Positions 1 to 37,813 of a stretch of 64,000 nucleotides of DNA are shown in pieces. Where the stretch lies: contig CAVPBC010000002.1 in the NCBI GenBank assembly GCA_963701785.1, positions 1,365,093-1,429,092 of the forward strand, in the 5' to 3' direction. Made by a program: the position numbers and the translations under genes. Every line of letters starts with the position of its first letter. Positions within the stretch are counted from its first letter, which is position 1. The DNA comes from an uncultured Bacteroidales bacterium (GTDB taxonomy: Bacteria; Bacteroidota; Bacteroidia; Bacteroidales; JAGOPY01). The notes under the pieces are model-generated. The model was not told where the DNA came from and did not search any database. It worked only from the letters and a program-made list of their open reading frames with translations.

Positions 1-470
1 CCGGAAGCATTATCATCGGCGCCATTGTATATAAGCCCGTTACGGATGCCCAGGTGATCGTAATGGGCGCCGACAACAAGACTTTTCGTACTGTCCTTCC
101 CCCGGATAATGCCGGTAACATTGCTGACGACAGCCGTTCCAGGCCGTCCCAGGATGAGATAAAGAGAACCGATCTTTTCAGGATAATAAAGTTTGATCTC
201 AAAATTCTGTAGATAACTTCGCTGACTGGAATCAAAATCACCAATTGGATCAAGACCATTCATTTGCATCATGCTTGCTATGTAATCAGCGGCCATGTAA
301 TTGCCGCGTTTACCCGGCTCACGGCCTTCCATCCAGTCGGAGGAAAGGAAAGTGAGCGTTGCTGCAAAATCTTTGATTTCAGGGGCCGGAACAGGCATGG
401 GATTGTCCTGTGCCGGCAGCGATGCTGATATCAGCCAGAGCGCAATGGTAATAAGGCTAAATTTTCTCAT
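1..470 (-). CDS. M28-family metallopeptidase (aminopeptidase), 5' part only; gene continues beyond the left edge
   Basis: Own minus-strand translation from ATG (complement of 468-470): MRKFSLITIALWLISASLPAQ signal peptide ... SLVVGAHYDHLG ... YNGADDNASG (M28 zinc-ligand motifs). Open to position 1, so absent from the ORF track. Confidence 0.7.
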   Translation of the reverse strand, partial: MRKFSLITIALWLISASLPAQDNPMPVPAPEIKDFAATLTFLSSDWMEGREPGKRGNYMAADYIASMMQMNGLDPIGDFDSSQRSYLQNFEIKLYYPEKIGSLYLILGRPGTAVVSNVTGIIRGKDSTKSLVVGAHYDHLGIRNGLIYNGADDNAS

Positions 471-478
471 CAGGGAAA

Positions 479-1608
479 TCACCGGGTCATCATTTTTCCC
501 ATGGCCATCAGGTGAACTATGTTGAATCCTGTATCCAGCAGTAAAATATCAGCATCATAACCTTCGCGGATATATCCTTTGCCGGGTAATTTCAAGATGT
601 CGGCCGGATTTGATGTAACTACCTGCAAGGCTTGTTCCAGCGGGACTCCATCTGCCAGGACAGCATCTTTGACTTCTCTCAGGTTTGAAGAAGGAAGTCC
701 CATTTCAATCTTTATCAGTTTCCCGGTCTCAGGATCAAAACCCGGCAGGGAGCCGCAGGCATCGGAGGTAAAGGTAATATGGGCCAGGGGCACGCCGCCT
801 TCCAGGAGCAGTTTTAATGCGGTAGAGGGTTTTATTTCTTCATCAGGATAATAGGGATAAGAACTGGTTGTGATATCGACATAGCCTTTCTTCCCATATT
901 CCAGGGCATCCTTAAAGATATAATCGTTACGGTTGCAATGGGTCGGCAGGAACTGCCTGTATCCCATTTCGCTATTGGCAACCACATCATGGATCGGCCT
1001 GAAAGGGTCACGGGCATCGCCCATATGCATATTGACAATTCCGGCCTTCCCGCCGATCATCCCGGCCACGCGTGCATGGGCCGCAATCCTTGTCAATTCT
1101 GCGATCGAGGGCACGGAAGAACGATGGTCGGAGATGGCAACTTCACCCACCCCGATGACTTCTTCAAAGAGGGCAATATCTTTCATGATATCGCCGGTGA
1201 TGGAGGGAGGAGGGACCTGGTAGGCGCCGGTGTACATCCATGCCGACACCCCCTGGGCACGAAGCGTTTTCACCTTCATCAGCACACTTTCACGGTCCGG
1301 GTTATCCCGTCGGTTCCCAGACAGCCGATCACTGTAGTAACGCCGGCTTCGAGCATCATGCTGAGCTGGAGTTCGGGCATCCTGCTTATGGGGCCGCCTT
1401 CTCCGCCGCCACCCGTAATGTGAACATGAGAGTCGATAAGCCCGGGCACAAGCCAGAGCCCGGTGCAGTCGACCGTTTGCACTTCCATGCCTCCGGGAGG
1501 ATCAATATGATCCGCAATGGCTAAAATACTTTTTCCGCCGGTGAGAACATCTTTATTGCCAAGGTGTTGCGGGCTGTATACCTGTGCATTCTTAAAAAGT
1601 GTCATCAT
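479..1608 (-). pseudogene. iadA: isoaspartyl dipeptidase (amidohydrolase superfamily), split by one frame disruption at ~1279-1285
   Basis: ORF 1279-1608 (GLIDSHVHITGGGGEGG, HxH metal site) and ORF 479-1285 (VGEVAISDHRSS ... ITFTSDA) read as the N- and C-halves of one ~377-aa IadA-like protein. The junction lies in a GTGTG run. Confidence 0.85.
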
Positions 1609-1715
1609 GGTTCCTGGTTTTGTTCAGCAAAATTGGGGAAAAAAGTAATGCCAGTAATGTTTGTTCACCCTTATTTCTTACTTTCGTTTTACAAAATAAG
1701 CAGCACTTAAAAAGT

Positions 1716-3716
1716 ATGAATGATATAATTACCTTAAAAAGGGTTTTATTACACAGGTTGTTATTTCTTTTATGCTTCTGTGGATTTACTGCAGCATACG
1801 CTCAACCCGGCCGCCTGCTGTTAGTGGGAGGCGGCGCTGAAAAAAACGGCGTATCAAGCTGGAGCACACCGGCTTACCGCTGGGCTGGTGAAGGAAAAAG
1901 AGTGGCCATTATCGGTACCTCAACCGGAAGCCTTGCTCCTTATTTCATGCAGCAATGCGGCGCGGCCTGGGCAAAGGAATTTGCCATTGCCAGCCATGAC
2001 AGTGCCGACAGCCAGCTTACTTACGATACGCTGGTCACTTATGATGTAATCTTTTTCAGGGGCGGCGACCAGTATGACTACTACGATTTATACCGCGATA
2101 CAAAACTCCAGGATGCAGTAGAATATTTATACAGCCAGGGAGGTACAATCTGCGGCACTTCGGCAGGTATGTCCATCCTTTCTTCAATAGTTTACACGGC
2201 AGAAAACGGATCAGCTTACCCGGATGAATGTATCGAGGATCCAAACAACCAGTATGTAACCCTTGCCAATGATTTCATGGACTTTGTCCCGGGATTTGTT
2301 TTTGATACCCATTTTGCGAGAACGCGGCCGATTTGGCCGGCTGGTCGGATTTCTTGCCAATTACAGCCTGAACCAGGGGCAGGCCATTACCGGCTTAGGG
2401 ATGGATGACCTGACCTGCATGACCGTGGATGAGAATGGGCTGGGCACTGTTTACGGCACAGGTTGTGCCAATATCTATATGGCCGGCAGTAATTATTCGC
2501 TAAATGGCACCAAACTGCTGGCCGATACCGTGCATGTTATCCAGCTTTTGCACGGATGCACCTATGATTTCGCAACCGGCCAGGCTGGATTTGCAAGCCT
2601 GGACATGCAGATAAACACCTCCGGGCAGGAAGAATCCGGTAATTATACCGTACTGGCCAGCGGCAGCAATTTACTTGCCATATAACCAGGATATGCTGAA
2701 CGACCTGGTGAACAATACAGGGACTCCATCTGCGGAAATACTTATTATTTTCGGGTGACCAGGCCCTGGCAAACACTTATAAAACCAGGCTGCTTGAATT
2801 GGGTGCTTCTCAGGTGCATATCGTCTTACCGGACCCGCAATCGGGTAGCGATCACTGAGCTGGGCAACCTCATTACCCAGGCAACTAAAATACTGTTCCT
2901 GAAGAACAGCTTTCCGGTATTTTCCGGATTTCTGGAAACCTCCGATGGAGATTTGCTTCAGCAAAGAGTTAAAAACGACGGAATGATTACCGCTTTTGTT
3001 GGTGAAGATGCGCGGCTTGCCGGGAAGATTGTCGTGGAGAATTATCTCACGGAATATGCCTCCTATTATGCCGAGCTCACTTTTGGAAAAGGGCTTTCAT
3101 TGCTCCGGCACACCGTTTTAATGCCCGACACCTATCTGAACAGCGACATATATGAGAACACGGCAACGGCAGTCCCTTACGTCATGGCCAGGGATACGCT
3201 GAAATACGGCATCTGGCTCACCAACCACAATTACATGAAATTCACCCCGGTTGATGGTAAAACCACCCTTACAGGCTATGGGACAGCCCCGGTTATGGTA
3301 ATTACCAATGCGGGCAGCCTGGCCGGTTTTTCGAGCCATACGGCCACAGGAAATACCAGCTGTTGAACCCCGGATGGTTGCTGGTTTTGAGCATTTACAA
3401 CTTGTCGCTGACCGACTTACACTTCGCCTTACGTGATGGGAATGGCGCAACCATCCGGGTATAAATACCAACGATGATGAAATTCCAGTTTCAATTTCAC
3501 CAAACCCGGTTCATAACGAGCTTACATTAATGTGGAATTGCGATGAATATTAGCTGGGAAATCATCAGCCTTCAGGGCAACATACTTATGCAAGGCAAAG
3601 CCTGCAACGAGCCTGAACATGTCGATGTTTCCACGCTCAAACCCGGCATCTATATCATTAAACTGAAGAATAAACAAAACAGTGAAATAACCGCTAAAAA
3701 ATTTATAAAGAACTAA
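1716..3716 (+). pseudogene. secreted peptidase S51 (cyanophycinase-like) with T9SS C-terminal sorting domain; at least 5 frame disruptions
   Basis: ATG 1716 with signal peptide LLFLLCFCGFTAAYAQ. Motifs LLLVGGGAEKNG, FFRGGDQYDY, ICGTSAGMSIL (Ser nucleophile), and DTHFA/ERGRFGRL joined across an extra base near 2325. Pieces 1599-2408, 2263-2685, 2755-3366. The tail 3500-3716 reads SPNPVHNELTL...GIYIIKLKN...KKFIKN (T9SS CTD). Confidence 0.75.
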
Positions 3717-3718
3717 AT

Positions 3719-4995
3719 ATGACAAAAAGAAAAGTACTTTTTATTTTAGCAGTCTTAATTCTCTTTTTTATTCCAGGTATTAAGTCCCGGTCGCAGGGAA
3801 ACCTCGTGATTGCCGGGGGAGGGCTGGAAGATGACAATGCCAGTGTTTATGACCAGCTGATAGCGCTGGCCGGGGGGGCCGAAAAGGCTACTTTTGCCGT
3901 TATCCCTTCTGCCAGTGGTGTATCGGTGCAATCTTATACAAGTTTCCGAAACATATTAATTTCCTATGGAATAAAGCCGGAGCATATCTACCTGATCAAC
4001 ATTGCCATGGTTGATGACGACAGTACAACGGATGTGAATGAGGCGGAATGGAGCAACAATGGCAATGATCCTCAGTTAGCCGGTATTGTCAGGTCGTGTT
4101 CGGCTGTCTGGTTTACAGGTGGCGATCAGACGCGCACGATAAAAACGCTGGTCATGCCTGATGGCAGTAAAACCCCCGTGCTTGAAGCGGTCTGGGAGGT
4201 CTATCAATTCAGGTGGCGTAATCGGAGGATCAAGCGCCGGTGCCGCGATCATGAGTGAAGCCATGATCGGGGGCGGCAACAGCCTTGCAGCACTGAAGCA
4301 CGGCATCATTAAAGATTACCAGGGAGATGATTTTCCCGAAGGAGATGGCGTGCTGATGTCGGAAGGACTGGGCTTTTTCCCCCTGGGAATTGTTGACCAG
4401 CATTTTGAACAACGGGCACGTATCGGGCGGCTTGCGGTGGCCCTTATGAATGAAAAACCCGGGTTTAACTTGGGCTTTGGCGTTGATGAAAATACCGCAC
4501 TCATTTACCTGGGCAGTCAGAACCTGGTGAAAGTCGCCGGCGCCGGCAGGGTTACCATAATCGATGCCGCAAATGCCAGTCTGTCTTACGTCCAGGGTTT
4601 ACCGGCGATCGAAAACCTTACAGTAAGCCTCCTCGAAGAAGGTGACTCTTTCGATGGCATCACGGGACAAATAGTCCCGTCTGCAGGGAAAAGACCTACA
4701 CGGGGAAATGAATACTACAATATTGAGAATCCGGGCCAGGCTGGGGTTTTATCGGCCAATTCCACCAGCTTCAGCGATCTGGCCACCATCAGCCTTATCG
4801 ATAACAAAGGAGCTGATATGGTAAGTAATATCAGTTTTTCAGATAAGGAATCCGGATTTATGGTGACTTTATACAAAACCCCTGAAAGTGAAGGTTTTTA
4901 TACTGATCAAGCCGGACGATGAAGATCATTATACCGTGACGAAAATAAGGATGGATATTGCACCCGTGCAGGTGACCATATCACCTTTGAAATAA
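3719..4995 (+). pseudogene. cyanophycinase-like peptidase S51 with signal peptide; 2 frame disruptions (~4205, ~4915)
   Basis: MTKRKVLFILAVLILFFIPG signal. Motifs LVIAGGGLEDDN, VWFTGGDQTR, VIGGSSAGAAIMSE, VDQHFEQRARIGRL. Pieces 3719-4258 and 4161-4922, plus a short tail EDHYTVTKIRMDIAPVQVTISPLK to TAA 4993-4995. Confidence 0.8.
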
Positions 4996-5019
4996 TTACA
5001 AAAACCAAATAATAAGCTT

Positions 5020-7937
5020 ATGAAAAAATTTACGCTTTTATTTTTCATTTTTCTTTTTTCGTTTTTCACTGTTCATTTAAGTATGGCCCAGGAAATGCCA
5101 ATTACCGGTAAAGTCATTTCGGCAGAGGATCAGCAGCCGATCCCCGGGGTTACTGTAAAGATCAGGGGCACATCGACCGGCACTATTTCCGGTCTTGATG
5201 GGAATTACACCATCAATGCCCCTTCAAACGGTGTACTGGTATTTTCATTCGTGGGTATGGAAACCCAGGAACTGGAAATCAACGGGCGCCGGGAAATAAA
5301 CGTGAAACTGGAGGAAGCCAGAATCGACCTTGGGGAAGTGGTGGTCATGGGTTACAGCACTGCCAGCAAAAAACTGATCTCCGGCTCATTCGGTGTGGTC
5401 AAGGAAGAAGAGATGAAGTCAATCCCAATGCGGACTGTAAACGGGGTTTTGCAGGGTAAAACCGCCGGGGTGGTCATCATGCAGAATTCCGGGACACCCG
5501 GGGCACAGAACACGATCAGGATAAGGGGAGGCAGTTCCATCAATGCCAATAACCAGCCGCTTATCGTAGTCGACGGTATACCGGTAATTACCGGAGCTTA
5601 TGGCCAGATCGGTTATTCAGGCCAGGAAATTGATGCTATGTCTGACATCAATCCCAATGATATTGAGCAAATTACTGTGTCTAAAAGATGGCTCAGCAAC
5701 AGCTATTTACGGTGCAAGGGCCTCGAACGGCGTCATCCTGATCACAACCAAAAAAGGAAGTTTGCAGCAAACCAACGTGAACCTGAACACTTCCTTCGGC
5801 TGGCAGGTCCTTCCGCAGGAACGCCTGATCGAAATGATGAATGCTCAGCAATGGAATGAATATAAAGGCACTGATGTCCAGGGTATTGACACCGACTGGA
5901 TGGATGAAATACTCCAGGTTGCACCAACTTCAAATACGGAACTTTCTGTAAGCAGCGGAAACGATAAAACCCGGATGTATATTTCAGGAACTTATTACAA
6001 CCAGGAGGGGGTTGTTAAATCCACTGACTACGACCGCTATTCCGGCAGGTTGAGTGTGGATCATAAACTGCTTAAAAACCTGACCATTGGTGGTGGTGTA
6101 TCCATGACCTATTCTAAAAATAAGCGTGTTGAAGGGGACCAGACACTTTTCGGCCCCCTGCCCAATGCTATGTCGCTCCCTGCCATTTTTCCCGTTTATA
6201 ATGAAGATGGGACATATAATGAAGATGGGCCTTACGCTAACCCTGTGGCCATATGCAATGAAACCGTCAATGAAGCTTACACCAACCGTACCAATGGCAA
6301 CGTTTTCCTGGAATATAAATTTCTTAACGGATTTATTTTCACCACCAAATGGAGTGCAGATATATATAATCTGCGTGAGCATGAATATGACCCGATTACG
6401 GTCAGGCAGGGTGAGAAATACAACGGACTCGGCATTGAAGGCACCAGCTATGTCAGCAACCTGGTCAGCAATAATGTATTGCAATATATAAAAACCGTTA
6501 AAGAAAAGCATAACCTTGAAGCCCTGGCCGGATTCAGTTTCGAAAAATATGCCAGCCGCTATACCTATATTGAGGCGATCGATTTCCCGAATGAACAGCT
6601 GCAGTACATCGAATCAGCAAGCACCATCAGGGCGGCGTCAGCCTCGGCGGTCAACAGTGCCATGAATTCATTCTTCGGCCAGTTCAAGTACAATTATCTT
6701 TACAAATATATCTATCACCCTCACAGCCCGTGCCGACGGTTCGTCGAAATTCGGCGAGAACAACAAGTATGGCTTTTTCCCTGCAGGTTCATTTGCATGG
6801 CGCTTATCCGAGGAATCTTTCATGGAAAATGCCGGTAAAGTTGATGATCTGAAAATCAGGATAAGTGCCGGGCTTACCGGTAATGACGGTATCCCCAACT
6901 TTGCCTCGCTTGGATTGTACCAGGGCGGATACGACTATGAAGGCGGTTCGGGAATCGCTCCCACGCAATTGCCAAACCCGGACCTGAAATGGGAAACCAC
7001 CATGCAGACAGGATTTGGAATAGATCTGGCCATGTTTAATAACAGGATATCCTTTACCGGTGATATATATTATAATAAAACGAGGGATCTGTTGTTTTCC
7101 AGGCCTTTGCCTCCTTCAACAGGTTATTATTACATCTATGAGAATGTTGGCACCCTCGAAAATAAGGGGATTGAACTGGCCCTGACAACTGAAAATTTAA
7201 TAAAAGCTTTTAAATGGAATACGTCAATCGTTTTTTCCGCTAACCGCAACAAGGTGCTGGAACTTTATGAAGGCCAGCCTATTGCTGACCAGGGCCGGGG
7301 TGGTAACTGGGTGATGGAAGGGGAACCGACCGGCATCTTTTATAATTACAGGTGCCTTGGTGTCGATCCGACAACCGGTGATCTTGTTTATGAAGATATA
7401 AATAACGATGGGTTGATCAATTCAGAAGACTGGACCAAGATCGGCAATCCTAACCCGGATTTCACCATGGGACTGACGAATAATTTCAGCTGGAAAAACT
7501 TTGATCTATCCATCTTTCTTCATTTCGTTGCCGGCAACGACGTATTCAACGGCTCTATGATTTACCTCGAATCGGGAACGGGAGATGATAACCAGACCAC
7601 CGACATGATCAGGAGATGGAAGCAACCCGGTGATATTACCGATATGCCAAGGGTGGGTGATTCATACAAGTCGTCGAGGTTTATCGAAAACGGTTCATTT
7701 TGCAGGATCAAAAATGTAACCTTCGGTTATAATTTCCCTAAAGAACTGATCTCGAAAATCAAAATGAAAACCCTCAGGATTTTTGTGATCGGCCAGAACC
7801 TTTATACGTTCACCTCTTATTCTGGTATGGACCCTGAAGTTAATTACTATGCCAATGATAATATCATTCTTGGCACCGACTTCTTTACCTATCCCCAGTC
7901 GCGATCCTTCCTTTTCGGTTTAAACATTGGTTTCTAA
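5020..7937 (+). pseudogene. susC: SusC/RagA-type TonB-dependent outer-membrane transporter; 2 frame disruptions
   Basis: Pieces 5020-5859, 5600-6838, 6822-7937. Signal peptide; CarbopepD_reg-like ITGKVISAEDQQPIPGVTVKIRGTSTGTISGLDGNYTI; plug motifs LQGKTAGV, IRIRGGSS, SATAIYGARASNGVILITTKKG; barrel ends SFLFGLNIGF. Confidence 0.9.
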
Positions 7938-7956
7938 TAATAAATACACGAAAAAT

Positions 7957-9313
7957 ATGAAAAAGCTAATCTATATAACCATCGCCTTTTCAGTCCTTTT
8001 ATTATCCTGTACAAAAATGCTCGATATCGAACCGACTGATGCCATTTCCTCAGATGAAGCGATCAAAGACAAGGCCGGCGTCGATAAAGCAATTGCCGGT
8101 TCTTATGACGCCCTCCAGTATGCCGGGATGTATGGCCGCAACAGGGTGATCTTAGGTGACCTGGCCGCCGACAACCTGGTCTGGACCGGAACCACTTATG
8201 ATTATTATGAAATTGACAATAATGATGTCGCCATTGAAAACGGGATCATCGACGCCATGTGGTCAACATCCTATGACGGGATCAACAGGGTGAACAACGT
8301 CCTTGCTGCACTGCCCGGCATTGGTGACCTGACTGACGATGAACGCAATAAATATGAAGGAGAGGCCTTATTTATGAGGGCCCTGTTTCATTTTAACCTG
8401 CTGCTTTATTTCGGGGGAGTGCCCATTGTCACCGCACCCACACTTAATGTAGATGAAGTCGACAGGCCCCGGAATACTGCTGAATGAAATGTATGACCAG
8501 ATCATTTCAGATCTTAAATCTGCTGAATTAAAGCTGCCATTTCCGGCAGATATGCCGGCAGGGAGTTTTGGAAGGGCGAATTCTTTCAGTGCCTCCGCCC
8601 TCCTGGCCAGGGTTTATCTCACACGTTACCATGCTGAAAACAACAACCAGTATGCAGAGGCAGCTGCAACCAAAGCTGATTATGTCATAAATTCAGGAGC
8701 ATTTTCATTGCTAAGCGATTATGCATTCCTTTACGAAGATGCCGGCAGTGAAAGCATATTCCAGGTCGTATTCAGCGTCCAGGACAGGAACGTGATTGCC
8801 CAGTATTTCTTTCCCAGGAGCCTGACCGGGCGGTACGAAGTTGCCCCTTCAGAATCGCTGATCCAGAGCTATGAGGTCGCTGATTCACTGAGGATAAGTC
8901 AGCAACAATTGCATATGATACAGAGGGAAAGCCATATGGGTATAAATACCAGGATATTGCCGAAGGCACTGATGCCATACTTGTCATCAGGCTTGCTGAA
9001 ATGTACCTTATCAAAGCCGAAGCGCTGGCTTATACAAACGGCGATATTGCCACGATCCAGGATAATATCAACATGATCCGCTCCAGGGCCGGCCTTGAGC
9101 CAACAACTGCCGACTACCTAGATTGAACTCAAACTGGCAATTGAAAATGAGCGCCGGCATGAATTTGCTTTTGAAGGCCACCGCTGGTTCGACCTGGTCA
9201 GAACAAAACGGGCGACAGGTTTACTGGGAATAGATGAAGATTATACCCTTTTCCCTATTCCATTGAGCGAAATGACTACAAATAAAAAAATGGAACAAAA
9301 TCCCGGTTATTGA
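7957..9313 (+). pseudogene. susD: SusD/RagB-family nutrient-binding outer-membrane lipoprotein; at least 3 frame disruptions
   Basis: MKKLIYITIAFSVLLLSC lipobox immediately after susC. Pieces 7927-8487 and 8453-9076, plus unlisted frames reading VIRLAEMYLIKAEALAY and ENERRHEFAFEGHRWFDLVR...FPIPLSEM...NPGY to TGA 9311-9313. Confidence 0.85.
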
Positions 9314-9331
9314 TTTTTAAACTGATAAAAG

Positions 9332-10535
9332 ATGAAAAAGATAATTATTTATATGATGATCATCCTTCCTGTTCTACTGATAACAGGATGCGAAAAATAT
9401 GAGCTGGGAAACCCGCTTCCCAGTACCATAGCTGATTTTACATATTCAGTCGGCAATAGCGGATATGCACCTGCAGATGTAACTTTTACCAACACCTCAC
9501 TGAATGCCAGCAGTTACCATTGGGATTTCGGGAACGGACAAACTTCAACGGAAACCAATCCGGTAATGTTCTATGAATTTCCTGGATTATATACAGTAAC
9601 TTTAACCGTATCAGCCGTTAATGATGTCCATTATAATCAACTCGTAAAAACCATGATAGTCAATGTCAAAGACATCAATGCAGGTAAGTCACAGGTCTTG
9701 TATTTTACTGAACGGACCGCTGATGGTGGCGCAGTTCATATGGTTATCCTTAATGACGAGGCTCCGGTTGTACAGGATTTTGATGCCGTTGAACTTAACA
9801 GGCCTTATGGCATCACGGCTGATTCAGCTACCGGCAAAGTGTTCGTTTCCGATTACTCCCTGGGCTACATTTACAGCTTTAATGCCGATGGTAAAAATCC
9901 CGTCAGGATTCTCGATATTAATGTTGCCGGCCAGGAAATCGTCGATTCCCCGCAAGCAATGATGGTGGTTGACAGCATGCTTTACTGGGGGCGCCCGGGA
10001 GGCATCTACCGCTGCAACCTCGATGGGACCAACCCGGAAGTTTATATAGAGACAGGTCTCGATATTGCCCCTGAATACCCTATCGATATGCAATATGATG
10101 AAATCTCAGGAAAAATTTACCTCTGCAACGACAAGACCGATTACAGCGGAGGCTACTTTTCCATGAATTTCGATGGCACCGGCCTGGTGGAACACATACC
10201 TCGATATTGATGGGACTGCTATCGAAGTTGACTTTAATGCGGGTAAAACCTACATGGCTATTTATCCTGCCGATGGAACCCCGGTCACTGATTATGGTAT
10301 CTATACCTGCAACCTGGACGGAACAGGGCTTGCCAAGATCGCCGATTATGGCGGTAAGGCAACCTGGGGCGTCGCGATCGACCATGAGCGCGGAAAACTA
10401 TTCTGGAGTTTCAAGATGTCGAATACCGGGGCCGATGGAAAGATCATCCGCGCTAACCTCGATGGCACGGACCAGGAAGACTGGGTTACAGAAGTAAATC
10501 CCAATGCCATGTGCGTGGCCTGGGTGAAGCTTTAG
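9332..10535 (+). pseudogene. surface lipoprotein with PKD domain and YWTD/LDL-receptor-class-B-like beta-propeller repeats; 1 frame disruption (~10190)
   Basis: LLITGC lipobox. PKD motif VTFTNTSLNASSYHWDFGNGQTS...YTVTLTV. Repeats IYRCNLDGTNPEV, IYTCNLDGTGLAKI, KIIRANLDGTDQED. Pieces 9332-10210 and 10173-10535. Sits in the SusE/F position of the locus. Confidence 0.7.
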
Positions 10536-10549
10536 TCGTTGGACTACAA

Positions 10550-10578
10550 AAAAAGGCTGCTCTTCCGGCAGCCTTTTT
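10550..10578. terminator. bidirectional rho-independent-type terminator between convergent genes
   Basis: AAAAAGGCTGC-tcttccg-GCAGCCTTTTT: 6-bp GC stem extended by an A/T run on both sides. Lies 15 nt after the stop at 10535 and 70 nt after the minus-strand stop at 10648. Confidence 0.55.
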
Positions 10579-10647
10579 GCTCTTATTATGACTTGATAAT
10601 CTATCTGACCACGAACATTTTATTTGACTGAACCTGTCCGTTACACT

Positions 10648-11703
10648 TTAACGTATAATAATATGACCGCTGGTTAAGCCATCAGCATTAAATTCAATAG
10701 AGTGTGATCCTTTTGTTTGATCTGAACTGACCAGGGTAACCACTTCCTTGCCGAGAGTATTATAAACCTTCAGACTGACAAAACCATCTTCCGGCAACTG
10801 GTATTTGATGGTGGTTGAATTGTTAAAAGGATTGGGATAATTTTGCCCGAGGTTGAATTTATTGACAGAAAGATCATTATCATCTATGGACATGAATAAT
10901 GCCTCATACTTTTCAATCAGCTGCAGCCAATGCTTGCCATCATTGTTGCCTCATCGGCCCCAAGTGCCATTGCATAAAATACATCAAATGATTCCCCTGG
11001 CGCTAAAACAACCGGAGCCTGCGAAGTGATTGTAACCGGACCATCAGCAGTAGTTGAAGCATATAGTGGCTGTAACGTTCCATAATTCATCCAGGTCCAG
11101 AAATCGGAATCAACAGGATAACCATCATACCATTCAAAAGAATAAAGGGATGATAACGATTGCGGAAAGGAGCTTCATCCCCATATTCATCTGTGCACCC
11201 CTGTGAAACCGGATAACTTCTCCAGAACTGTTGTAAGTAACGGAATCAAATCCATACTCCTGGTTTAATTCAGGAATTACTTCCAGACCTGCAGAAGCAT
11301 TAATGGCAGCTGCTTCATTATTCGTTATATTGAATTTGACGATCATATAGGCTCCGTTGTTCCAACCGTAGGCATAATGTTTTACAATCACATCCGGGGG
11401 AAGTAATGAATAAGCGTTATTACAGGAGCCATAGATTTCAAAATCGCTTAATAAAGGATTTTCGACCAAAACTGTCGGATCCAGTTCCTCTGCATCATTT
11501 GTGTAATCAAATACATCTGTTGATGAAGTCCCCACTAAAACCGAAGCGCGCTGCAGATGCCTTGTGCCTTCAGGATCAAAAAGCCTTATCCTGCCATATT
11601 GGCTTATACTTACCTCCAGCGCACCTGTGTTAAAGGTTGCCTGGGAATAACTATCCGTTAATGCAAAGCAGCATGATGCCAGAAAAAGTAGAAGTTTTTT
11701 CAT
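10648..11703 (-). pseudogene. hypothetical secreted protein with T9SS C-terminal sorting domain; at least 2 frame disruptions
   Basis: N-terminal piece 11134-11703 (MKKLLLFLASCCFALTDSYSQ signal). C-terminal piece 10648-10893 (NYPNPFNNSTTIKYQLPEDGFVSLKVYNTLGKEV...). The middle section is readable only in other frames. Confidence 0.6.
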
Positions 11704-11919
11704 AGGTTTTAGATTTTAAGTTTGACGTTGACTTCTGATAATGCGAATATAATAAATATTTGGTCAGAATATTCTTTTATGCCAGTTTAGCCTTCATTAT
11801 TTCATTCATACATGAGATCTTCCCGTTCATCCCTGAATTAATGCCCGCAGGGCTAATTACATTTCTCTGCAATAACCTGTACCGATATCTTTGCTCCGAA
11901 CCAATCAAAAAACATTTTC

Positions 11920-14279
11920 ATGAAAAATATTTTCACTTTTTTGCTCCTGATTTTATTACCTGCTGCTTTACTTTCTCAATCTGCAGGGTATTCCTGGAAA
12001 TTTTACACTCCCGGTAATACAGGCATAATGGGCGATTATTCCGAGGCACTATGGATTGACCATGACGGCGATCCTTACATTGCAGCCTATGTCCCGGCTG
12101 GGAAGAGGGTGGCTTTTCAAAATACATCCAGGCATGAAAACCGGTGGATCAATTATTCAAATGTTGAATACCCGGTTATCGGAAGCATTTATGATGTCGG
12201 GTCATCGCGCATTTCAGATATTGCAGAAGATGCCGATGGCATTCTCTGGATGGCAACCTGGAGAGGGATCCTGAAATTTGATCCTGCTGCCGGAGGAAGT
12301 TCGCTTGAATTCTGGGGGGCAGACAATTCACTTCATCCCGGGGGAAGAACAATGGATATCGATATTGCCCCGGATGGTTCGGTTTGGGCTGCAGTTCATT
12401 CTGTTACCTGGGGCTAGGGAGGATTGGTGCACTTTGATCCTGCTACAGATGAATGGCAATACTGGGGATACGGTTCAACTGCAAATAACTGGCCCAGCCT
12501 GATCGGTTTCTGCGAACAGGTGTCCGTCCAGCCAAAACCTGCCGGAGGATATGTGGTTTGGGTTGATGGGGCAGGATGGAATACGATGATCACTTTTGAC
12601 AGCGATACCCAGTTGTTCACCTTGTTGCCGCAGAATTATGAAACCGGCGAAGTGGTCGCTCTTCCCGGAAATGATTGTATTGATGAGGAAGGGAATTTGT
12701 GGGCGCTCCGGGTTACAAATCCGGGCGACCCTTTTTCGCTCGATTACCTGACACCCGGCGGAACCTGGGTTACACCTCCGCAGCCATCTTCAGTTATGGC
12801 GGATATCTGGGCGTTCACGGCATTTGGAAACCATGAAGCATTGATTACCGGATTAAGCAGTGAAGTGTTTCAGTTTGACGGCACATTCATGGCAAAGCAA
12901 AGGGATCTGGCGGGAAGGAGCATATACTTATGCCCTGGATATCGATGATGCAGGAAATATCTGGGTAAGCGGTGTGGAAGGAGCTGCAAAACGGGATGTT
13001 ACAACAGGCCTGTGGCAGCGTCACCGGATTACAAACTCCTCCCAGATTGATTACTGGGTTGAAGATATAGCCATTGATGATGAAGGCAATGTATGGATGA
13101 CCGGCAATGCCGGGCCTGGTGTCGGAGGCTTTCAGAAATTTGACGGAACCAACTGGACAGGTTATAATGAATATACCTATGGCTTGGGATACCCGTTCCC
13201 TTTCCCGACCGATAATACCGAAGCGATCTGTTTCCGGCCGTCCAATGGAGAAATTGTTATTAATCCCATGTATAATTACCTTCATAGCTGGAATGGCTCG
13301 TCCTACAACTCGCTTAATTACAACCATCGACAGGTCAAAAGGCCTGGCTGAAGATTCCCAGGGCAGGTTATGGAGCCTTGGAGAATATTATAACCTGGAA
13401 TACCTTGATGAAAACGCTAATACCTGGACTTCAGTGCCATTTTATGGGATGGGGCGCCAATATCAGGAAAGATCCGACACGGCCGGGAACGGTCTGGGCC
13501 TGCTCCGGCTACCAGGTCCTGCGGACCGATGGCAAGTTACAATTATTCAAAGGTGGTTGATGATTTTCCGGAACTTGATCCGCAAAGCGATATGCTTTCA
13601 ACGGTTATTCCGGCACCTGACGGCATTGCCTGGGTTGGCTCCAACCAGGGTTTGTTCAGGCTGGATGCCAGAAAACGACACCTATCAGTTTTTCTCATCC
13701 TGGAAACAGCCAGATTCCCGGGGAAAATATTACCCCATTGGCTTATACCCCGGATGGCCGTATCTGGTTTACAAATTTTGGCAGCTGTAAATGCCACAGA
13801 AATTGGTTTATGCTGGTTCGACGGAACAGAATTCGGCATTTTCCCGGTCCAGGATGGCGGATTGCCTCATGCCCAGATTACAGATGTTGAAGTAAAAGAA
13901 CATCTGAATGGTTATGAACTTTGGATGAGCTGCTTAAGCAGGGGCATTGCTGTTCTTGATGTTATTAATGATAATGTGGGGATTGAGACGATTAATTTTC
14001 CTCGAGCCAGGTTTATTCCTGCAGAATTATCCGAATCCTTTCAAAAATAGTACCTCTATCAGCTTTACTATACCTGGTGATGGATTTGTAAGTCTTTCGA
14101 TTATTGATATCAACGGCAGGGTAGTCAGCGAATTAGCCGGAGCATATTATCAAACCGGAACACATTCTTTAACGTGGAATGGAAATGATAATCGCGGCAG
14201 GCATCTTAGTCCCGGAATGTATGTTTGCAGGCTTATAAGCGGAAATAAATCAGAAGCAATCAGGATGATCGTTCAATGA
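11920..14279 (+). pseudogene. decayed beta-propeller-repeat T9SS cargo gene, paralogue of 17312-19636; in-frame TAG at 12415-12417 plus at least 8 frameshifts
   Basis: Seven ORF-track pieces (11920-12417 ... 13947-14279) are colinear with the intact 774-aa protein on the opposite strand, e.g. GNVWMTGNAGPGVGGFQKFDGTNWTGYNEYTYGLGYPFP versus GNVWMTGNAGTGVGGFQKFDGINWTGFNEFTYGLGYPFP. T9SS CTD NYPNPFKNSTSISF at the end. Confidence 0.8.
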
Positions 14280-24360: not shown

Positions 24361-25538
24361 TCAGGTCTGATAATGTATAAAAATATAATTCAGCAGAAAT
24401 ACGAACACAGTTATTATGATGCCAATCATGAATACATTGTAAGCAATTCTGACAAGCCTGAATTTTTTTGCCAGGATTTTCCCCAGTGCATATTGATTTT
24501 TAAGCAAAGTGGAATAAAGATGTTCATCATCCGTCATCATCTCTTTCACGGCATCCTGGTAATCATCATAATTTAATTTGATGAAATTGCCGAAAAAGGT
24601 GAGATCAACATTCTTGTTCTTGAGGTCTTCCTCGTTGAATTTCCTGGTCACTATATTTGGCCTTGTAGACAAAATAGCAATGATTATGGTGATAAGGCAG
24701 ATGACCAGGAAGACCAGGATTGGCACAATATCCTTCGACATATTCCCGATATTCCCGGCAAGCATGGTAATGATGATCGAGATGATAATTGCATTGACCG
24801 AGATCAGGATATTCGATTTGTTATCCGCAATGGAATTCAGGTTGATTTGATTACGCGCTGTTATGCGGAACATGGTATCTACGCCCCTGGAATAAGAAAT
24901 GCTTTTCTTTTCGGGAATTTCTTTTTTAGGCTCGACAAGTTTACGTCGTTTTAACCGTTCGGATATCCGTTTGACAATTGCTTCCTTTTTGGGTTGAAGC
25001 ACTGTCTTCCCATATTCCGTAAAATAAATATGTTTTGTGAAAAAATCAATAAAGTACTTTTCGAAAACCTGGCGTTTTACTGGTTTTGACTTCGACATGG
25101 CGGTTTCATCAAAAAGCAGGTCAAATTGTTCCATGCCATTTTCAGCAGCGATAAACATCAGATCGGCATCACAAAGGACTTCCGCAATTTTATCCTTCGG
25201 GTTTTGAGGCAGCCTGGTTGCCCCGATGATTTCAGCAATTTGGTCGATGGTCTGTTGATCAACATGATGTTCTGCCAGGAATGAAGAGGCGATAACAATG
25301 CTTTCCTCATGGCATTGATCATATGAGCCCACATATCCTGTATTGCATGAAACAATGCACATATCCTGAGGATATTCATTTCTTCACCGGTAAGCCCGGC
25401 GTGCTCCCCTATCGTTTCTGCATATTTTTTAACCCGTAAAGCATGATCAAAATCATGATAAATGATAGTTGAAGGTAATTTTTCAGCCAGCAACGCAGAA
25501 ATATAACTTTCTGATTCAGCTAATTAAAAGATCATTAA
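24361..25538 (-). pseudogene. HD-domain phosphohydrolase fused to a DUF5706 / Pycsar-effector-like transmembrane domain; at least 2 frame disruptions
   Basis: N-terminus MSKINDLLIS (ATG at complement of 25536-25538) joins AESESYISALLAEKLPSTIIYHDFDHALRV by a 1-nt shift. ICALFH/DTGYVG (HD motif) is broken near 25350. The C-terminal half MFRITARNQINLNSIADNKSNILISVNAIIISIII... has 4 predicted TM helices. Stop lies 1 nt before the next gene's ATG. Confidence 0.7.
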
Positions 25539-32473: not shown

Positions 32474-33856
32474 ATGAAGAAATTTTTGCTATTTCTGGTA
32501 ATTGCCTTTTCAGGGATTTTATTCGCCTGCAATAAAGATAACGATGACAATAGAAACCAGGTAGAAATTCCGGAAGGTTATTCTTTGCTCTGGGCAGATG
32601 AATTTGATGGATCTGATTTAAATACTGACTACTGGCAATATGAAACCGGGGATGGGACGGATTATGGTTTGCCTGCCGGTTGGGGAAATAATGAAAAGCA
32701 AATATATACAAGCAACAGTGATAATTCAGGTATCGAAAACGTTGGCGGAGTTTCCTCCCTTGCGATTACTGCCCGCGAAGATAATTCAGGGGGTTATACT
32801 TCAGCCAGGATTACAACCAGAGACCTGATAAGCATTCGGTTCGGCCGCCTGGAGATAAGGGCAAAATTGCCCGAAGGCCAGGGTATCTGGCCGGCAATCT
32901 GGATGCTTGGTGATAATATTGATACGATTGCCTGGCCGGGCTGCGGCGAGATTGATTTTGTTGAGGTTTTAGGTCATGAACCTTCTGTTTTATACACAAG
33001 CCTGCACTATACCAACGGTACCAATCAGAAAGGTGATATCCAGAATGTTTACCAGTTGCCTGCCGGGAGTTTTAGTGATGGGTATCATACATTCACATTA
33101 GACTGGACGCCGGATTCTTTGAAATGGAGCCTGGATGCACAGCAGGTCTTTCAAACATCAATTGAGGCTGACATGAAAGAATTCCTGCGCAGCTTTTATT
33201 TGATATTAAATGTTGCAGTTGGAGGGAACTGGCCTGGCGATCCCGACGGCACCACCGCTTTTCCACAAACCATGTATATTGATTTTGTGCGCCTCTTTTC
33301 AAAGGACGACCTGCAGGTGCCGGCCTCGCCCCCTTTAAATATCGAAGAAGAAACAGTAGGGCAAATCATTGAGCCAAACATTGGAGATAATGCGATCAGG
33401 GAAGGGTTCACTGAATTTGGGAGCCTGGACGTCTTATCATATGGGGGTGGGGGAGAACCCCTGGTTTTAACGTCTGAAACTGCTATTGACGGAGATCTCA
33501 GCCTGGTATTTGATTTTCCCGGCGGCAACTGGGGAGGGGCGTACATTGAACTAGCTGCTGCAAAGAACCTGGGTAATTACGCATACCTTAAATTTTCACT
33601 TAACAAACCATCTTCTTTGGTGAATGCCGAAATAAAACTTGAATCCCCCTCAACCAATGCCATTGTATTCCTTGAAGATTATACCGGGTTGCCTGTTGCT
33701 GAAGGATTTGTGGAATATACTATTCCGCTCGCCGATTTTACCGGGCTCGATCTTACCCAGATAACCATTCCATTCGCAATCTGGAATCCCAAGGGGGCTT
33801 ATCAGAACTTCGTGGCAGCCACTGTATTGATTGATAATGTTTATTTTTCTGATTGA
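32474..33856 (+). CDS. GH16 beta-glucanase (laminarinase-like) lipoprotein with C-terminal carbohydrate-binding-like domain
   Basis: 460 aa. AFSGILFAC lipobox. WADEFDG, GRLEIRAKLP, WPAIWMLG, and catalytic GEIDFVE (ExDxxE). Intact. Confidence 0.85.
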   Translation: MKKFLLFLVIAFSGILFACNKDNDDNRNQVEIPEGYSLLWADEFDGSDLNTDYWQYETGDGTDYGLPAGWGNNEKQIYTSNSDNSGIENVGGVSSLAITAREDNSGGYTSARITTRDLISIRFGRLEIRAKLPEGQGIWPAIWMLGDNIDTIAWPGCGEIDFVEVLGHEPSVLYTSLHYTNGTNQKGDIQNVYQLPAGSFSDGYHTFTLDWTPDSLKWSLDAQQVFQTSIEADMKEFLRSFYLILNVAVGGNWPGDPDGTTAFPQTMYIDFVRLFSKDDLQVPASPPLNIEEETVGQIIEPNIGDNAIREGFTEFGSLDVLSYGGGGEPLVLTSETAIDGDLSLVFDFPGGNWGGAYIELAAAKNLGNYAYLKFSLNKPSSLVNAEIKLESPSTNAIVFLEDYTGLPVAEGFVEYTIPLADFTGLDLTQITIPFAIWNPKGAYQNFVAATVLIDNVYFSD

Positions 33857-34885: not shown

Positions 34886-37813
34886 ATGAAACGATCCGCT
34901 TTCCTGGTCATTTTATTTGCTCTCCGGATTTTTAACCTGAACGGTCAGATCATCTACATCCCCGGTGATTATCCCACAATCCAGCAGGGGATAACAGCCG
35001 CAACGGAAGGGGATACGGTACTGGTATCTCCCGGGACCTATTATGAGAACCTGTTTTTTAACGGGACCAATATAACGCTGGCCTCGCTTTTTCTCACAAC
35101 GAACGATACATCATATATTTCCACCACCATCATTAATGGCAGCCAGGCAGGCTCTGTTATTACTGTTGAGAATTATGAAGATTCAACCACGCTCATTTGT
35201 GGTTTTTCCATCATTAATGGTGATGGCGGAACCTCCGGTGGCGGATTGTACATTTTTGACGCAGCACCCGTTCTGGAACATCTATATATCTTGGACAATG
35301 AAGCAACGGAAGGTGGAGGCATTTACTTGTTTTATAGCGAGGCGGTTATCCGGCATTGCCGCATTGAAGCAAACCTTGCGAATAAAGGCGCCGGTATCAT
35401 TTCTTGTTATTCCACTCCCCAAATGACCGATCTTTTGGTTTTACAGAACGAGGCAAGTAGTGGGGGCGGAGGTATCGTTATTCTTTCATCTGTCCCGGTA
35501 ATGGACAACATCCTGATTGAAGGCAACAGCTCTGGTTCTGGCGGAGGTGGACTGGTAATCGAATACAGTAATCCCAAAATCGTATTGACTGGCGTCTATA
35601 TTGTATCGAATACAGCCGTCGATGGTGCAGGAATACATAGTAACGGGGAACTAAACTTTAAAAACGGTTTGGTTTCAGGAAATATTGCCAGCAGATACGG
35701 GGGAGGAATTTATTCCAGGGACTCGTTATGGATTTACAATTCGGAGATCAGTTATAATTCAGCCAATTATGGCGGAGGCCTTTACATTAACGGCTCCTGT
35801 GTAAAAACCGATTCCGTGGAAATTACACATAACAACGTGATTTATAACGGGGGAGGCATCAATTGTTACCAGACCTCCCTGGCTATCCTTAACCATTCAT
35901 CTTTGAATGCCAATACTGCCGGTAGCGCCGGAGGTGGTTTATATTGCCATGAAGACAATGAACTTATGCTTTCAGGAACTTCCGTAATTTATAATCATTC
36001 CCGCATCGGAGGCGGGTTATCATTCCATTCAGGACAATCATTAAGCTTTGACCCGATAAACCGCTGTAATATTTACCTCAATTCTTCAGATAATTATGGT
36101 AGTGATCTATACTCTGAGGCCGACACTTTTGTAATCATCGTGGATACCTTTACAGTCAGGTATCCTACTGAATTTCATGTCGAAAACATGGGGAAATTTA
36201 GTTTTGATATACTGGCCGGAAAGATAACACAAGTTGATGCTGATCTGTATGTTTCTCCTTCCGGGAATGATACCAATTCCGGCCATACCCCGGATGATCC
36301 GCTTCGGACGATATTATGCGCCTTTAGCAGGCTCCGGGCAGAAGCAGGCCACAGTCACAGCGTCCGTCTTGCCAATGGTACTTACAGCCCGTCAACCGGC
36401 CAGGTCTTCCCGTTGCGCCTGCTGAATTACGGCAGCCTCAGCGGAGAATCAATGGAACAAACCATCCTGGATGCGGAAGGTGCCGGTTCTGTAATTATAA
36501 TGGAGAATGATACGATACCCCGAATAGAGATGCTTACTATTAAAGGTGGAATTTATTTGGTTGGAGGAGGTATTTATTCTGTTAATTCTGAATTTCATGG
36601 ACGAAAACTCTTGCTTACCGGCAATTCAAGTACCTATGACGGTGGAGGTGCATATATCGTTAGCAATAAAAATTCCAGTCTGGAGAATTCCATTGTGAAA
36701 AACAATACATCTGTTGAAGGAGGTGGTGTATATGCAGAAGATTCAGGAATTAAAATGCAATCTGTTGAATTCAACAGTAACATTGCCATGTACGGAGGCG
36801 GAATAGCGATGAGAGACTGTGATACGGCATTAATGAGCGGGCTAAAGTTTTCTAATAACCAGGCCTATAGCATGGGTGGTGGATTGTATGCCTTGCGAAC
36901 ATCAAATTTCATCATAAGCAGTTCAGAATTCAACTCAAACACAGCAGCCGATGGCGGAGGCGTTCATTCCCGCTATTCTTCCCCGGTGATCATTAATTCT
37001 CTGTTCACAAACAATATCGGCATACACACAGGCAGCGGGGTCGAATTGTATCATGATTATGAGGACGATACAACGGATATTGAATCCCGAATCATTAATG
37101 TCACGTTTTCAAACAATACCACACCGGCCTTATTTTGTTATGCTGCCAGTGTCAGCCTGACCAATGATATTTTCTGGGGGAATGCCGGCCCATACCAGGT
37201 ACAATGCCAGGAACCCGATACCCTTTCCGATACGCTTCGCGTAATCAACTCAACGATCCAGAATGGGATGAACGGGATCGGTATTACCGGCCCGGCAGAG
37301 ATCATCTGGCTTGACGGCAACAAAGATTCAGATCCGCTTTTCATGGAGGCCGGGACCGATCCGTTTGCGCTGGACACGGGATCGCCCTGTATTGACGCCG
37401 GTACGACAGATACAACCGGACTGTTTCTGCCTTTTAACGACATCATTGGAAACACCCGCGTATGGGATGGCGATGGCAACGGAACACAAATCATTGACAT
37501 GGGTGCTTATGAATATGGGGCACCTGTGGAACTGCCGGAACCAGGGATCCTTGCATTCAATTCCTCCGGTGAATCCATTATTTACCCTAATCCTGCCAGG
37601 GATGAGCTGAAAATTGAACTGGCCGGAAATAATGCCGGGAACGGTACGATCTCGGTTTTTGACATTTCAGGGAAAATGATTTACAGCGACACCCGGGCTC
37701 TTTCGCAGGCAATGACTATCAATACCTCTTTTCTTGATAGTGGAATTTATATCATACAAGTTTCCACGGTTGCTAAAACAGAACGTCAGATTTTTATCAA
37801 ACTTAATTTCTAA
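34886..37813 (+). CDS. right-handed beta-helix protein with polymorphic-membrane-protein (Pmp)-type GGG(I/L)Y repeats and T9SS C-terminal sorting domain
   Basis: 975 aa, intact. More than 15 repeats of the form N.A..GGGIY / GGGLY. CTD IIYPNPARDELKIEL...GIYIIQVSTVAKTERQIFIKLNF. Confidence 0.8.
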   Translation: MKRSAFLVILFALRIFNLNGQIIYIPGDYPTIQQGITAATEGDTVLVSPGTYYENLFFNGTNITLASLFLTTNDTSYISTTIINGSQAGSVITVENYEDSTTLICGFSIINGDGGTSGGGLYIFDAAPVLEHLYILDNEATEGGGIYLFYSEAVIRHCRIEANLANKGAGIISCYSTPQMTDLLVLQNEASSGGGGIVILSSVPVMDNILIEGNSSGSGGGGLVIEYSNPKIVLTGVYIVSNTAVDGAGIHSNGELNFKNGLVSGNIASRYGGGIYSRDSLWIYNSEISYNSANYGGGLYINGSCVKTDSVEITHNNVIYNGGGINCYQTSLAILNHSSLNANTAGSAGGGLYCHEDNELMLSGTSVIYNHSRIGGGLSFHSGQSLSFDPINRCNIYLNSSDNYGSDLYSEADTFVIIVDTFTVRYPTEFHVENMGKFSFDILAGKITQVDADLYVSPSGNDTNSGHTPDDPLRTILCAFSRLRAEAGHSHSVRLANGTYSPSTGQVFPLRLLNYGSLSGESMEQTILDAEGAGSVIIMENDTIPRIEMLTIKGGIYLVGGGIYSVNSEFHGRKLLLTGNSSTYDGGGAYIVSNKNSSLENSIVKNNTSVEGGGVYAEDSGIKMQSVEFNSNIAMYGGGIAMRDCDTALMSGLKFSNNQAYSMGGGLYALRTSNFIISSSEFNSNTAADGGGVHSRYSSPVIINSLFTNNIGIHTGSGVELYHDYEDDTTDIESRIINVTFSNNTTPALFCYAASVSLTNDIFWGNAGPYQVQCQEPDTLSDTLRVINSTIQNGMNGIGITGPAEIIWLDGNKDSDPLFMEAGTDPFALDTGSPCIDAGTTDTTGLFLPFNDIIGNTRVWDGDGNGTQIIDMGAYEYGAPVELPEPGILAFNSSGESIIYPNPARDELKIELAGNNAGNGTISVFDISGKMIYSDTRALSQAMTINTSFLDSGIYIIQVSTVAKTERQIFIKLNF

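Follow-up and report, generated by a model that had tools for sequence, protein, structure and literature searches.

Anatomy of a predicted cyanophycin-scavenging SusC/SusD locus in an uncultured Bacteroidales bacterium

Cyanophycin is an Asp–Arg storage polymer that is released by dead cyanobacteria and other bacteria, and it holds a large share of the fixed nitrogen in cyanobacterial mats, blooms, and sludge. To our knowledge, the organisms that recycle it, and the ways in which they do so, are poorly documented beyond the Pseudomonas and Bacillus producers of CphE. A cyanophycin transport complex homologous to polysaccharide utilization loci (PULs) was reportedly described in 2017 by Ben Hania and colleagues. 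A stretch of 64,000 nucleotides from an uncultured Bacteroidales bacterium (GenBank assembly GCA_963701785.1, contig CAVPBC010000002.1, positions 1,365,093 to 1,429,092; here called the window) carries at its left end a cluster of peptidase and outer-membrane transport genes that probably serves to scavenge this polymer. A preliminary description of the DNA had listed an M28 aminopeptidase and an isoaspartyl dipeptidase running leftward, and two S51 peptidases, SusC, SusD, and a lipoprotein with a PKD domain and a propeller running rightward; this gene content and the coordinates given for it were recovered.

The genes run outward from a divergent spacer between iadA and the S51 operon. The spacer had been put at about 100 bp and measures 107 bp (1609–1715). 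It is the presumed promoter site; a sigma-70 scan scored it no better than shuffled sequences, using a tool that does not cover Bacteroidota promoters. On the minus strand lies iadA, encoding an isoaspartyl (β-aspartyl) dipeptidase (479–1608, one frameshift near 1288–1293), and beyond it an M28 family aminopeptidase gene that the edge of the window truncates to its N-terminal ~156 codons (1–470), which include a Sec signal peptide (MRKFSLITIALWLISASLPAQ...). On the plus strand, the first gene encodes S51T9, a secreted cyanophycinase-like S51 peptidase of 663 amino acids (1716–3716, ~9 frameshifts), and the second encodes S51b, a putative CphE-type cyanophycinase of 424 amino acids (3719–4995, two frameshifts at ~4203 and ~4909). 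They are followed by a SusC/RagA-family TonB-dependent outer-membrane transporter (5020–7937, two frameshifts at ~5679 and ~6712) and, after a gap of 19 bp, by a SusD-family surface lipoprotein with the lipobox LLLSC (7957–9313, three frameshifts at 8480, 8894–8895, and 9110). The SusE/F position is taken by a lipoprotein of ~400 amino acids that combines a PKD domain with a six-bladed YWTD-type propeller (9332–10535, one frameshift at ~10201). Convergent with this gene, on the minus strand, is that for T9x, a 366-amino-acid protein secreted by the type IX secretion system (T9SS; 10601–11703, three frameshifts). Between the two lies a hairpin with a 12-bp stem (10550–10578, plus strand), the first-listed hairpin in a scan of the region and the one with the longest stem; as a match to a terminator-like consensus only, it is likely the end of the operon.

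Only the truncated M28 gene is an intact open reading frame (ORF) among the genes in 1–11.7 kb, and the uncorrected ORFs gave weak S51 matches only (Pfam). The corrected proteins described below were obtained by dynamic programming that allows for frameshifts, in which intact orthologs from a related locus (L002) were aligned to the DNA of the window, and a nucleotide-level gene alignment was also made against L001, the closer locus. The corrected frames have no stop codons, bar one in SusD where the correction misplaced a frameshift. Both pairs of motifs reported earlier for the S51 proteins, GTSAGM and GSSAGA at the nucleophile and DTHFAERGRFGRL and DQHFEQRARIGRL, are present, the motif DTHFAERGRFGRL becoming legible only once a frameshift near 2319 is corrected.

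S51b is supported as a cyanophycinase by its family and active-site residues, and it is predicted to cleave cyanophycin to β-Asp-Arg. Its sole family match is the TIGR02069 cyanophycinase equivalog, which it passes with 175 bits against a cut-off of 126.6 (E = 1.8e-51). When aligned by HMMER with CphB (PDB 3en0; chain numbering minus 20), it keeps S132 (GSSAG), H174 (DQHF), and E201 (GVDE), and a check of the Ser-His-Glu triad thus found it complete in this protein. The CphB pocket, which we take after Law et al. 2009 to comprise Q101, D172, Q173, R178, R180, and R183, is also retained in all six residues, with Q101 in a GGDQ motif. The PDB sequence matches of both S51 proteins are to cyanophycinase-named entries only, with PepE-type chains absent, and the closest solved structure to both is 7uqv. 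More than 1500 homologs of S51b were found, typically of 424 amino acids and often named cyanophycinase in metagenome-assembled genomes (MAGs) of Bacteroidota.

S51b carries a Sec signal and neither a lipobox nor a T9SS domain, and because of this combination in a Bacteroidota cell it is predicted to be periplasmic. By its published description, CphE is resembled by S51b, here meaning CphE of Pseudomonas anguilliseptica and P. alcaligenes, in having a Sec signal, a mature protein of ~400 amino acids, and a GxSxG-His-Glu triad; the P. alcaligenes enzyme (CphEal) has 419 amino acids, a 24-amino-acid Sec signal, and a Ser-His-Glu triad (PMC3235067). It differs from CphE in its predicted periplasmic rather than extracellular location and in that its gene sits in a SusCD operon. 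The comparison with CphB of Synechocystis (PDB 3EN0 / 7UQW) extends to the S51 fold as well as to the triad and pocket conserved in S51b. However, CphB is intracellular, whereas both S51 proteins of the window are exported, and S51b has an extra C-terminal region of ~110 amino acids.

S51T9 is a more elaborate protein, with a Sec signal, an S51 catalytic domain, a second α/β domain of ~270 amino acids, and a T9SS type A C-terminal sorting domain. The sorting domain, which the preliminary description had already recognized at the end of the first S51 protein, matches TIGR04183 (37.8 bits against a cut-off of 23) and PF18962 (38.6 bits), which marks the protein as T9SS cargo and predicts a location at the cell surface. 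Its fold was read from an AlphaFold2 (AF2) model of an 82%-identical ortholog (P0122, pLDDT 85). The catalytic domain of this model finds 7uqv, 7uqw, and 3en0 in Foldseek, ranking above PepE, and the C-terminal domain finds the solved T9SS C-terminal domains 8qb1 and 8gl6. Across 41 members of the subfamily the GGDQ, GTSAG, D..H, and ExRxRxxR motifs and a DD pair are invariant. S51T9 has several hundred homologs, and orthologs are named in NCBI as "T9SS type A sorting domain-containing protein" or "Type 1 glutamine amidotransferase-like."

The second domain of S51T9 (residues ~311–575, window ~2650–3450) has GEDARLAG at the nucleophile elbow and no nucleophile. In the AF2 model of the ortholog its secondary-structure order parallels that of the first domain. 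A comparison by hhalign gave no match between the second domain and the first, and a weak colinear match between the second domain and the S51b core (P 0.002, probability 14%). Mainly from its secondary-structure order, the domain is possibly a degenerate, duplicated S51 unit that would form a pseudo-dimer with the catalytic one. Compared with CphB, then, S51T9 shares the fold and differs by an Asp in place of E201, a Thr in place of Q173, this second, noncatalytic domain, and the T9SS tail.

The identity of iadA held as first described. The protein passes the TIGR01975 equivalog with 445.9 bits against a cut-off of 331.25, and its best PDB matches (7cdh, 7cf6, 1onw, and 8dqn, E ~1e-90) are all isoaspartyl dipeptidases; it aligns end to end with the solved enzymes 7cdh, 1onw, and 8dqn (residues 1–374). 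The absence of a signal peptide predicts a cytoplasmic location. The adjoining M28 gene, of which the expected signal peptide and N-terminal part were found at 1–470 on the minus strand, matches Pfam PF04389 with 29.1 bits against a cut-off of 21.3. Orthologs adjoin iadA in 21 of 37 related loci (see below), and the M28 aminopeptidase is a conserved accessory of the locus.

The import genes form the adjacent SusC/SusD pair that marks a PUL-type system. SusC matches TIGR04056 (874.9 bits) and carries the TIGR04057 signature (64.1 bits); its best PDB match is 8aa4, a SusC homolog (E 1e-142), with RagA (6sli) in third place. SusD matches Pfam SusD-like_3 (109 bits) and SusD_RagB (102 bits), and its PDB matches are SusD homologs. 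The third surface component had been described as a PKD and YWTD-propeller lipoprotein in the SusE/F position, and each part of that description was recovered. The protein has the lipobox LITGC followed by acidic residues and one PKD domain (Pfam PKD_4), and the propeller was read from an AF2 model of a 98%-identical intact protein (P0241, 393 amino acids, pLDDT 89.8), whose top Foldseek matches are the YWTD propellers of LRP6, LRP4, and LDLR (E ~3e-12, TM ~0.55). It is predicted to be a substrate-binding protein. T9x has a Por_Secre_tail domain as its sole family match, and its N-terminal 250 amino acids have no PDB sequence match even at E 10.

The layout is like that of a classical PUL in the Sus paradigm, with a surface depolymerase, SusD and extra surface binders, SusC, a periplasmic exo-enzyme, and final hydrolysis in the cytoplasm. 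It differs in that all of the enzymes of the locus are peptidases or amidohydrolases, with no carbohydrate-active enzymes (CAZymes), and in that no HTCS, SusR, or ECF regulator was seen in the window. SusC and SusD have their nearest PDB relatives among components of glycan utilisomes, which would be expected if this were an ordinary glycan PUL with peptidase neighbors by coincidence. That explanation is extremely unlikely given that no glycoside hydrolase (GH), polysaccharide lyase (PL), carbohydrate esterase (CE), or carbohydrate-binding module (CBM) was found in any product of 1–11.7 kb or in the core of L001 or L002, and given that S51b and SusC are adjacent in 32 of 32 testable loci from many species. 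Import of peptides rather than glycans has a SusC/SusD-type precedent in RagAB of Porphyromonas gingivalis, and RagA ranks near the top of the PDB matches to SusC from the window. However, RagAB has no S51 or IadA genes linked to it and takes up ordinary oligopeptides derived from proteins, and both SusC and SusD of the window stand nearer to components of glycan utilisomes.

Conservation of the gene order was assessed by a scan with an S51b profile, using one genome per species. The locus proteins were then mapped onto the 80 best loci, 37 of which are from Bacteroidota. The same synteny, with M28 and IadA on the minus strand and (S51T9), S51b, SusC, SusD, and the PKD lipoprotein on the plus strand, recurs in these 37 Bacteroidota species representatives, and SusC directly follows S51b in each of the 32 loci noted above. 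IadA is present in 31 of the 37 loci, SusD in 26, the PKD lipoprotein in 25, S51T9 in 22, M28 in 21, and T9x in 20. The core of IadA, S51b, SusC, SusD, and the PKD lipoprotein is complete in 23 of 37, and several of the incomplete loci are on short contigs. The association of these genes is not chance, and T9x may be an unrecognized component of the system. Within the best 80 loci, those nearest to the window come from Lentimicrobiaceae and Bacteroidales MAGs, with S51b identities of at most 70%.

The proteobacterial homologs of S51b are full-length at 35–41% identity and usually lie beside a DcuC-family permease, sometimes with IadA. Permeases of the DcuC/YfcC family accompany the CphE-type gene in many loci of Bacteroidota as well (L002, 18242–19633; L004, L008, L018, L020, L022, and L035) and in most of the proteobacterial loci (L040–L080). 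The family is a good candidate for an inner-membrane importer of β-Asp-Arg. Other genes also recur at the edges of these loci. In 14–15 of the 37, the locus is flanked by genes for an M14 carboxypeptidase and for a dipeptide-epimerase-like protein of the MR_MLE type (L001, 16795–19440; L002, 1319–5118), and their counterparts in this genome would lie past the left edge of the window. A saccharopine-dehydrogenase-like gene stands at the locus in two related genomes. No homologs of the DcuC, M14, MR_MLE, or saccharopine-dehydrogenase genes were found within the window.

Many Bacteroidota have genes for both CphA1 and a cyanophycinase (PMC10206079, Table 2), and the locus could in principle turn over the cell's own cyanophycin store, as cphA–cphB clusters do, rather than scavenge. 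The placement of the enzymes makes this very unlikely. Both S51 proteins carry export signals, one of them with a T9SS tail, and both of their genes belong to an operon for import across the outer membrane. A scan of window ORFs found no cphA-like gene, none is listed in the two annotated loci L001 and L002, and neither cphA nor Arg or Asp catabolic genes were found in the rest of the window.

These features are best accounted for by a cyanophycin-scavenging SusCD system whose frameshifts are most probably assembly errors, a reading to which we give a probability of roughly 0.73. Under the proposed order of steps, the T9SS would export S51T9 to the cell surface, as its sorting domain predicts, and there the enzyme would attack cyanophycin from lysed cells. 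Judging from their families, lipoboxes, and gene order, SusD and the PKD-YWTD lipoprotein would bind soluble chains or oligomers, and SusC would import them. S51b would then cut the imported oligomers to β-Asp-Arg in what is its predicted compartment, the periplasm. The dipeptide would cross the inner membrane through a transporter encoded outside the window, a role for which related loci carry the DcuC/YfcC-family permease, and the cytoplasmic IadA would hydrolyze it to Asp and Arg. That a cyanophycinase of the periplasmic type is invariably paired with SusC suggests that what crosses the outer membrane is the polymer or oligomers and not dipeptides.

A number of observations weigh against this reading, and several of them concern S51T9. 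It scores 90.3 bits on TIGR02069 (E = 1.3e-25), below the cut-off of 126.6, and this is its sole enzymatic family match. Its subfamily keeps the Ser and the His and has an Asp at the position of Glu201 in all 41 members; because the DD pair is invariant across them, the triad acid would be Asp, not Glu. Five of the six CphB pocket residues are kept, and Q173 is replaced by a Thr (Thr198) that is nearly invariant in the subfamily. The preliminary description had both S51 proteins carrying cyanophycinase-type motifs; S51b adds to these its equivalog match, triad, and pocket, whereas S51T9 is cyanophycinase-like but falls below the cut-off and has an Asp in place of the triad Glu. In addition, at least 10 related loci have no S51T9. 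The surface depolymerase must therefore be dispensable or replaced, and where it is missing, its part must at times be taken by cross-feeding within the community or by some other activity at the surface.

The adverse points extend to the other components. The entry 7uqv is titled "Pseudobacteroides cellulosolvens pseudo-CphB," though the motif DQHFDQRGRFGRL is present, and a CphB-like sequence may thus not guarantee cyanophycinase activity. IadA enzymes encoded in cyanophycin clusters act promiscuously on isoaspartyl dipeptides (PMC10206079), so iadA alone leaves the substrate unfixed. The characterized cyanophycinases are exo-acting and release dipeptides (PMC10206079; PMC3235067), which need no SusCD; import of oligomers therefore requires a further, predicted activity. 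The relation of SusC and SusD to glycan-utilisome proteins, which is closer in the PDB than that to RagAB, also belongs here. Neither an inner-membrane transporter nor a regulator was found in the window. The claim that depolymerase, importer, and final hydrolase are all co-located is accordingly right for the S51 proteins, SusCD, and IadA, but the pathway is not wholly co-located because the inner-membrane transporter is not in the window. A search of the literature found no validation of this type of locus by enzyme assay, growth, expression, or genetics.

Part of this evidence would also fit a broader diet, with RagAB-like uptake of β-aspartyl, Asp-rich, or necromass peptides and with S51, M28, and IadA processing isoaspartyl or acidic peptides from decaying protein. 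The wide range of isoaspartyl dipeptides taken by the IadA family (PMC10206079), the sub-threshold score and altered triad and pocket of S51T9, and the pseudo-CphB name of the nearest solved structure all favor it, as do the M28 gene in 21 of 37 loci and the M14 carboxypeptidase and MR_MLE gene that related loci add. SusCD-type import of peptides is known for RagAB, and RagA is the third PDB match of SusC. Such a system remains unlikely in view of S51b, which passes the equivalog model, keeps every CphB pocket residue including the three arginines, and has the size and signal peptide of CphE. PepE-type S51 chains, furthermore, are absent from the sequence matches and fall below the cyanophycinases by fold.

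The scavenging interpretation also depends on how the damaged reading frames are understood. There are ~21 frameshifts across 1–11.7 kb and at least 5 further ones up to ~14.0 kb, nearly all of them +1 insertions outside homopolymers. Homopolymer slippage was considered as a cause and rejected, as the inserted bases fall outside homopolymer runs. The ORFs are fragmented up to ~14.0 kb, with ~2 frameshifts/kb in 1–14,050, while 14,312–64,000 is normal, with ORFs of 300–980 amino acids and two candidate frameshifts only. A long T9SS-tailed gene in at least six ORF pieces (11920–14279, plus strand) lies in the damaged part and has no counterpart among the mapped locus genes of related genomes. 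Elsewhere, a CotH-family gene (44519–46586, plus strand) lies in two overlapping ORFs (Pfam positions 1–217 and 239–322) that are split at ~45.93 kb, probably by a frameshift, and something similar may have happened to a GH16 ORF (32474–33856) that shares 26 nt with the ORF after it.

Two short-read contigs from the same sample, L084 and L085 of the Logan assembly ERR11561443, allow a direct comparison. A 975-amino-acid window protein (34886–37813) is found exactly in ERR11561443, and L084 is 99.97% identical to the window. L085 matches window 7793–10696 at 98.07% and has intact genes for SusD (450 amino acids) and the PKD lipoprotein (P0241). All five coding frameshift sites and one intergenic site within the overlap are indels relative to L085. 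Because a contig of 98% identity has the SusD and PKD genes intact, the breaks are most likely assembly errors. Among the coding substitutions between the window and L085, 29 of 49 are at codon position 3, and about half are synonymous; this bias in codon position points to real strain divergence under purifying selection.

The frameshifts could instead be real mutations, with the locus truly decayed to a cluster of pseudogenes in this strain. The crowding of ~26 frameshifts in 1–14 kb, compared with at most two candidates in the remaining 50 kb, would fit such decay, and a block that is 1.9% diverged from L085, in a window of which a different part reaches 99.97% identity with a same-sample contig, does appear to have a distinct history. 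Decay is rather improbable on several grounds, however. Nearly all of the events are single-base insertions outside homopolymers, unlike usual natural decay, and nonsense substitutions and large deletions are absent. The corrected proteins are 80–98% identical to intact orthologs, the excess of substitutions at codon position 3 indicates purifying selection, and unrelated neighboring genes up to ~14 kb are damaged equally. The ~21 frameshifts are thus most probably errors of the assembly consensus and not gene decay. The most economical reading is that the first ~14 kb is a poorly polished haplotype of a minor or mixed strain, combining a true divergence of 2% with insertion errors. The indel-dense block resembles a poorly polished minor-strain segment of a long-read assembly. 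With roughly two indel errors per kb over ~14 kb, automatic annotation of the locus would be ruined.

Loci of this type are already known as a prediction, and the interpretation is supported in silico. Sharon et al. 2023 (PMC10206079) refer to Ben Hania et al. 2017 (Environ Microbiol 19:1134) for a "cyanophycin utilization locus" with cyanophycinase genes, iadA, and a PUL-homologous transporter, used for environmental scavenging. Similar clusters are given there for strain L21-Spi-D4 and Flammeovirga pacifica. Salinivirga cyanobacteriivorans, which feeds on cyanobacteria, encodes a plain S51 protein and a second that carries a Por-secretion domain (Sorokin et al. 2018, PMC6243061), and a TonB-dependent transporter beside a cyanophycinase was noted in Citromicrobium already in 2012 (PMC3400609). 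The window fits the definition of Ben Hania et al., in the form in which PMC10206079 gives it, as it clusters iadA with cyanophycinase gene(s) and with an outer-membrane transporter homologous to those of PULs. The locus of S. cyanobacteriivorans L21-Spi-D4, as known through PMC10206079 and PMC6243061, is alike in having cyanophycinases, iadA, a PUL-homologous transporter, and a pair of plain and T9SS-tailed S51 proteins. It comes from another organism, however, the window representing a different, uncultured lineage of Bacteroidota. The S. cyanobacteriivorans genome was not among the best 80 loci of the S51b profile scan. The preliminary description had called a SusCD locus for a storage polypeptide unusual, a view that does not hold for a locus type predicted in 2017 (Ben Hania et al., through PMC10206079) and widespread. 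The window therefore provides one more example, and an anatomy, for a nine-year-old prediction and opens no new question. Dozens of uncultured species and more than 1500 S51b homologs do suggest that Bacteroidota may be major consumers of cyanophycin, with capture in the style of a PUL.

Some features of the system are not described in the literature consulted, namely the Ser-His-Asp/Thr198 signature and extra domain of S51T9, the YWTD lipoprotein, T9x, and the association with DcuC. One possible but doubtful extension is that the S51T9 subfamily forms a new class of surface cyanophycin depolymerase, with a Ser-His-Asp triad, Thr at Gln173, and a fused, degenerate S51-like second domain that completes an intramolecular pseudo-dimer, and that its enzymes release oligomers in place of dipeptides. 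SusCD would then import oligo-(β-Asp-Arg) "selfishly" for periplasmic cleavage of the CphE type, with T9x and the DcuC-family permease as new accessories. If true, this S51T9/SusCD route for oligomers would give the complete PUL paradigm its first counterpart for a polypeptide.

The remainder of the window holds a few other features. T9SS cargo genes are abundant in it. Two 598-amino-acid T9SS-tailed paralogs that are 76% identical (49793–51589 and 54044–55840, plus strand) lie on either side of a thymidylate synthase gene, and near this pair are two paralogs with a Fib_succ_major domain (56077–56850 and 58915–59664, minus strand). An ORF at 24361–25362 (minus strand) has a PycTM (Pycsar effector) domain with a score of 102 bits and may belong to an anti-phage Pycsar system.

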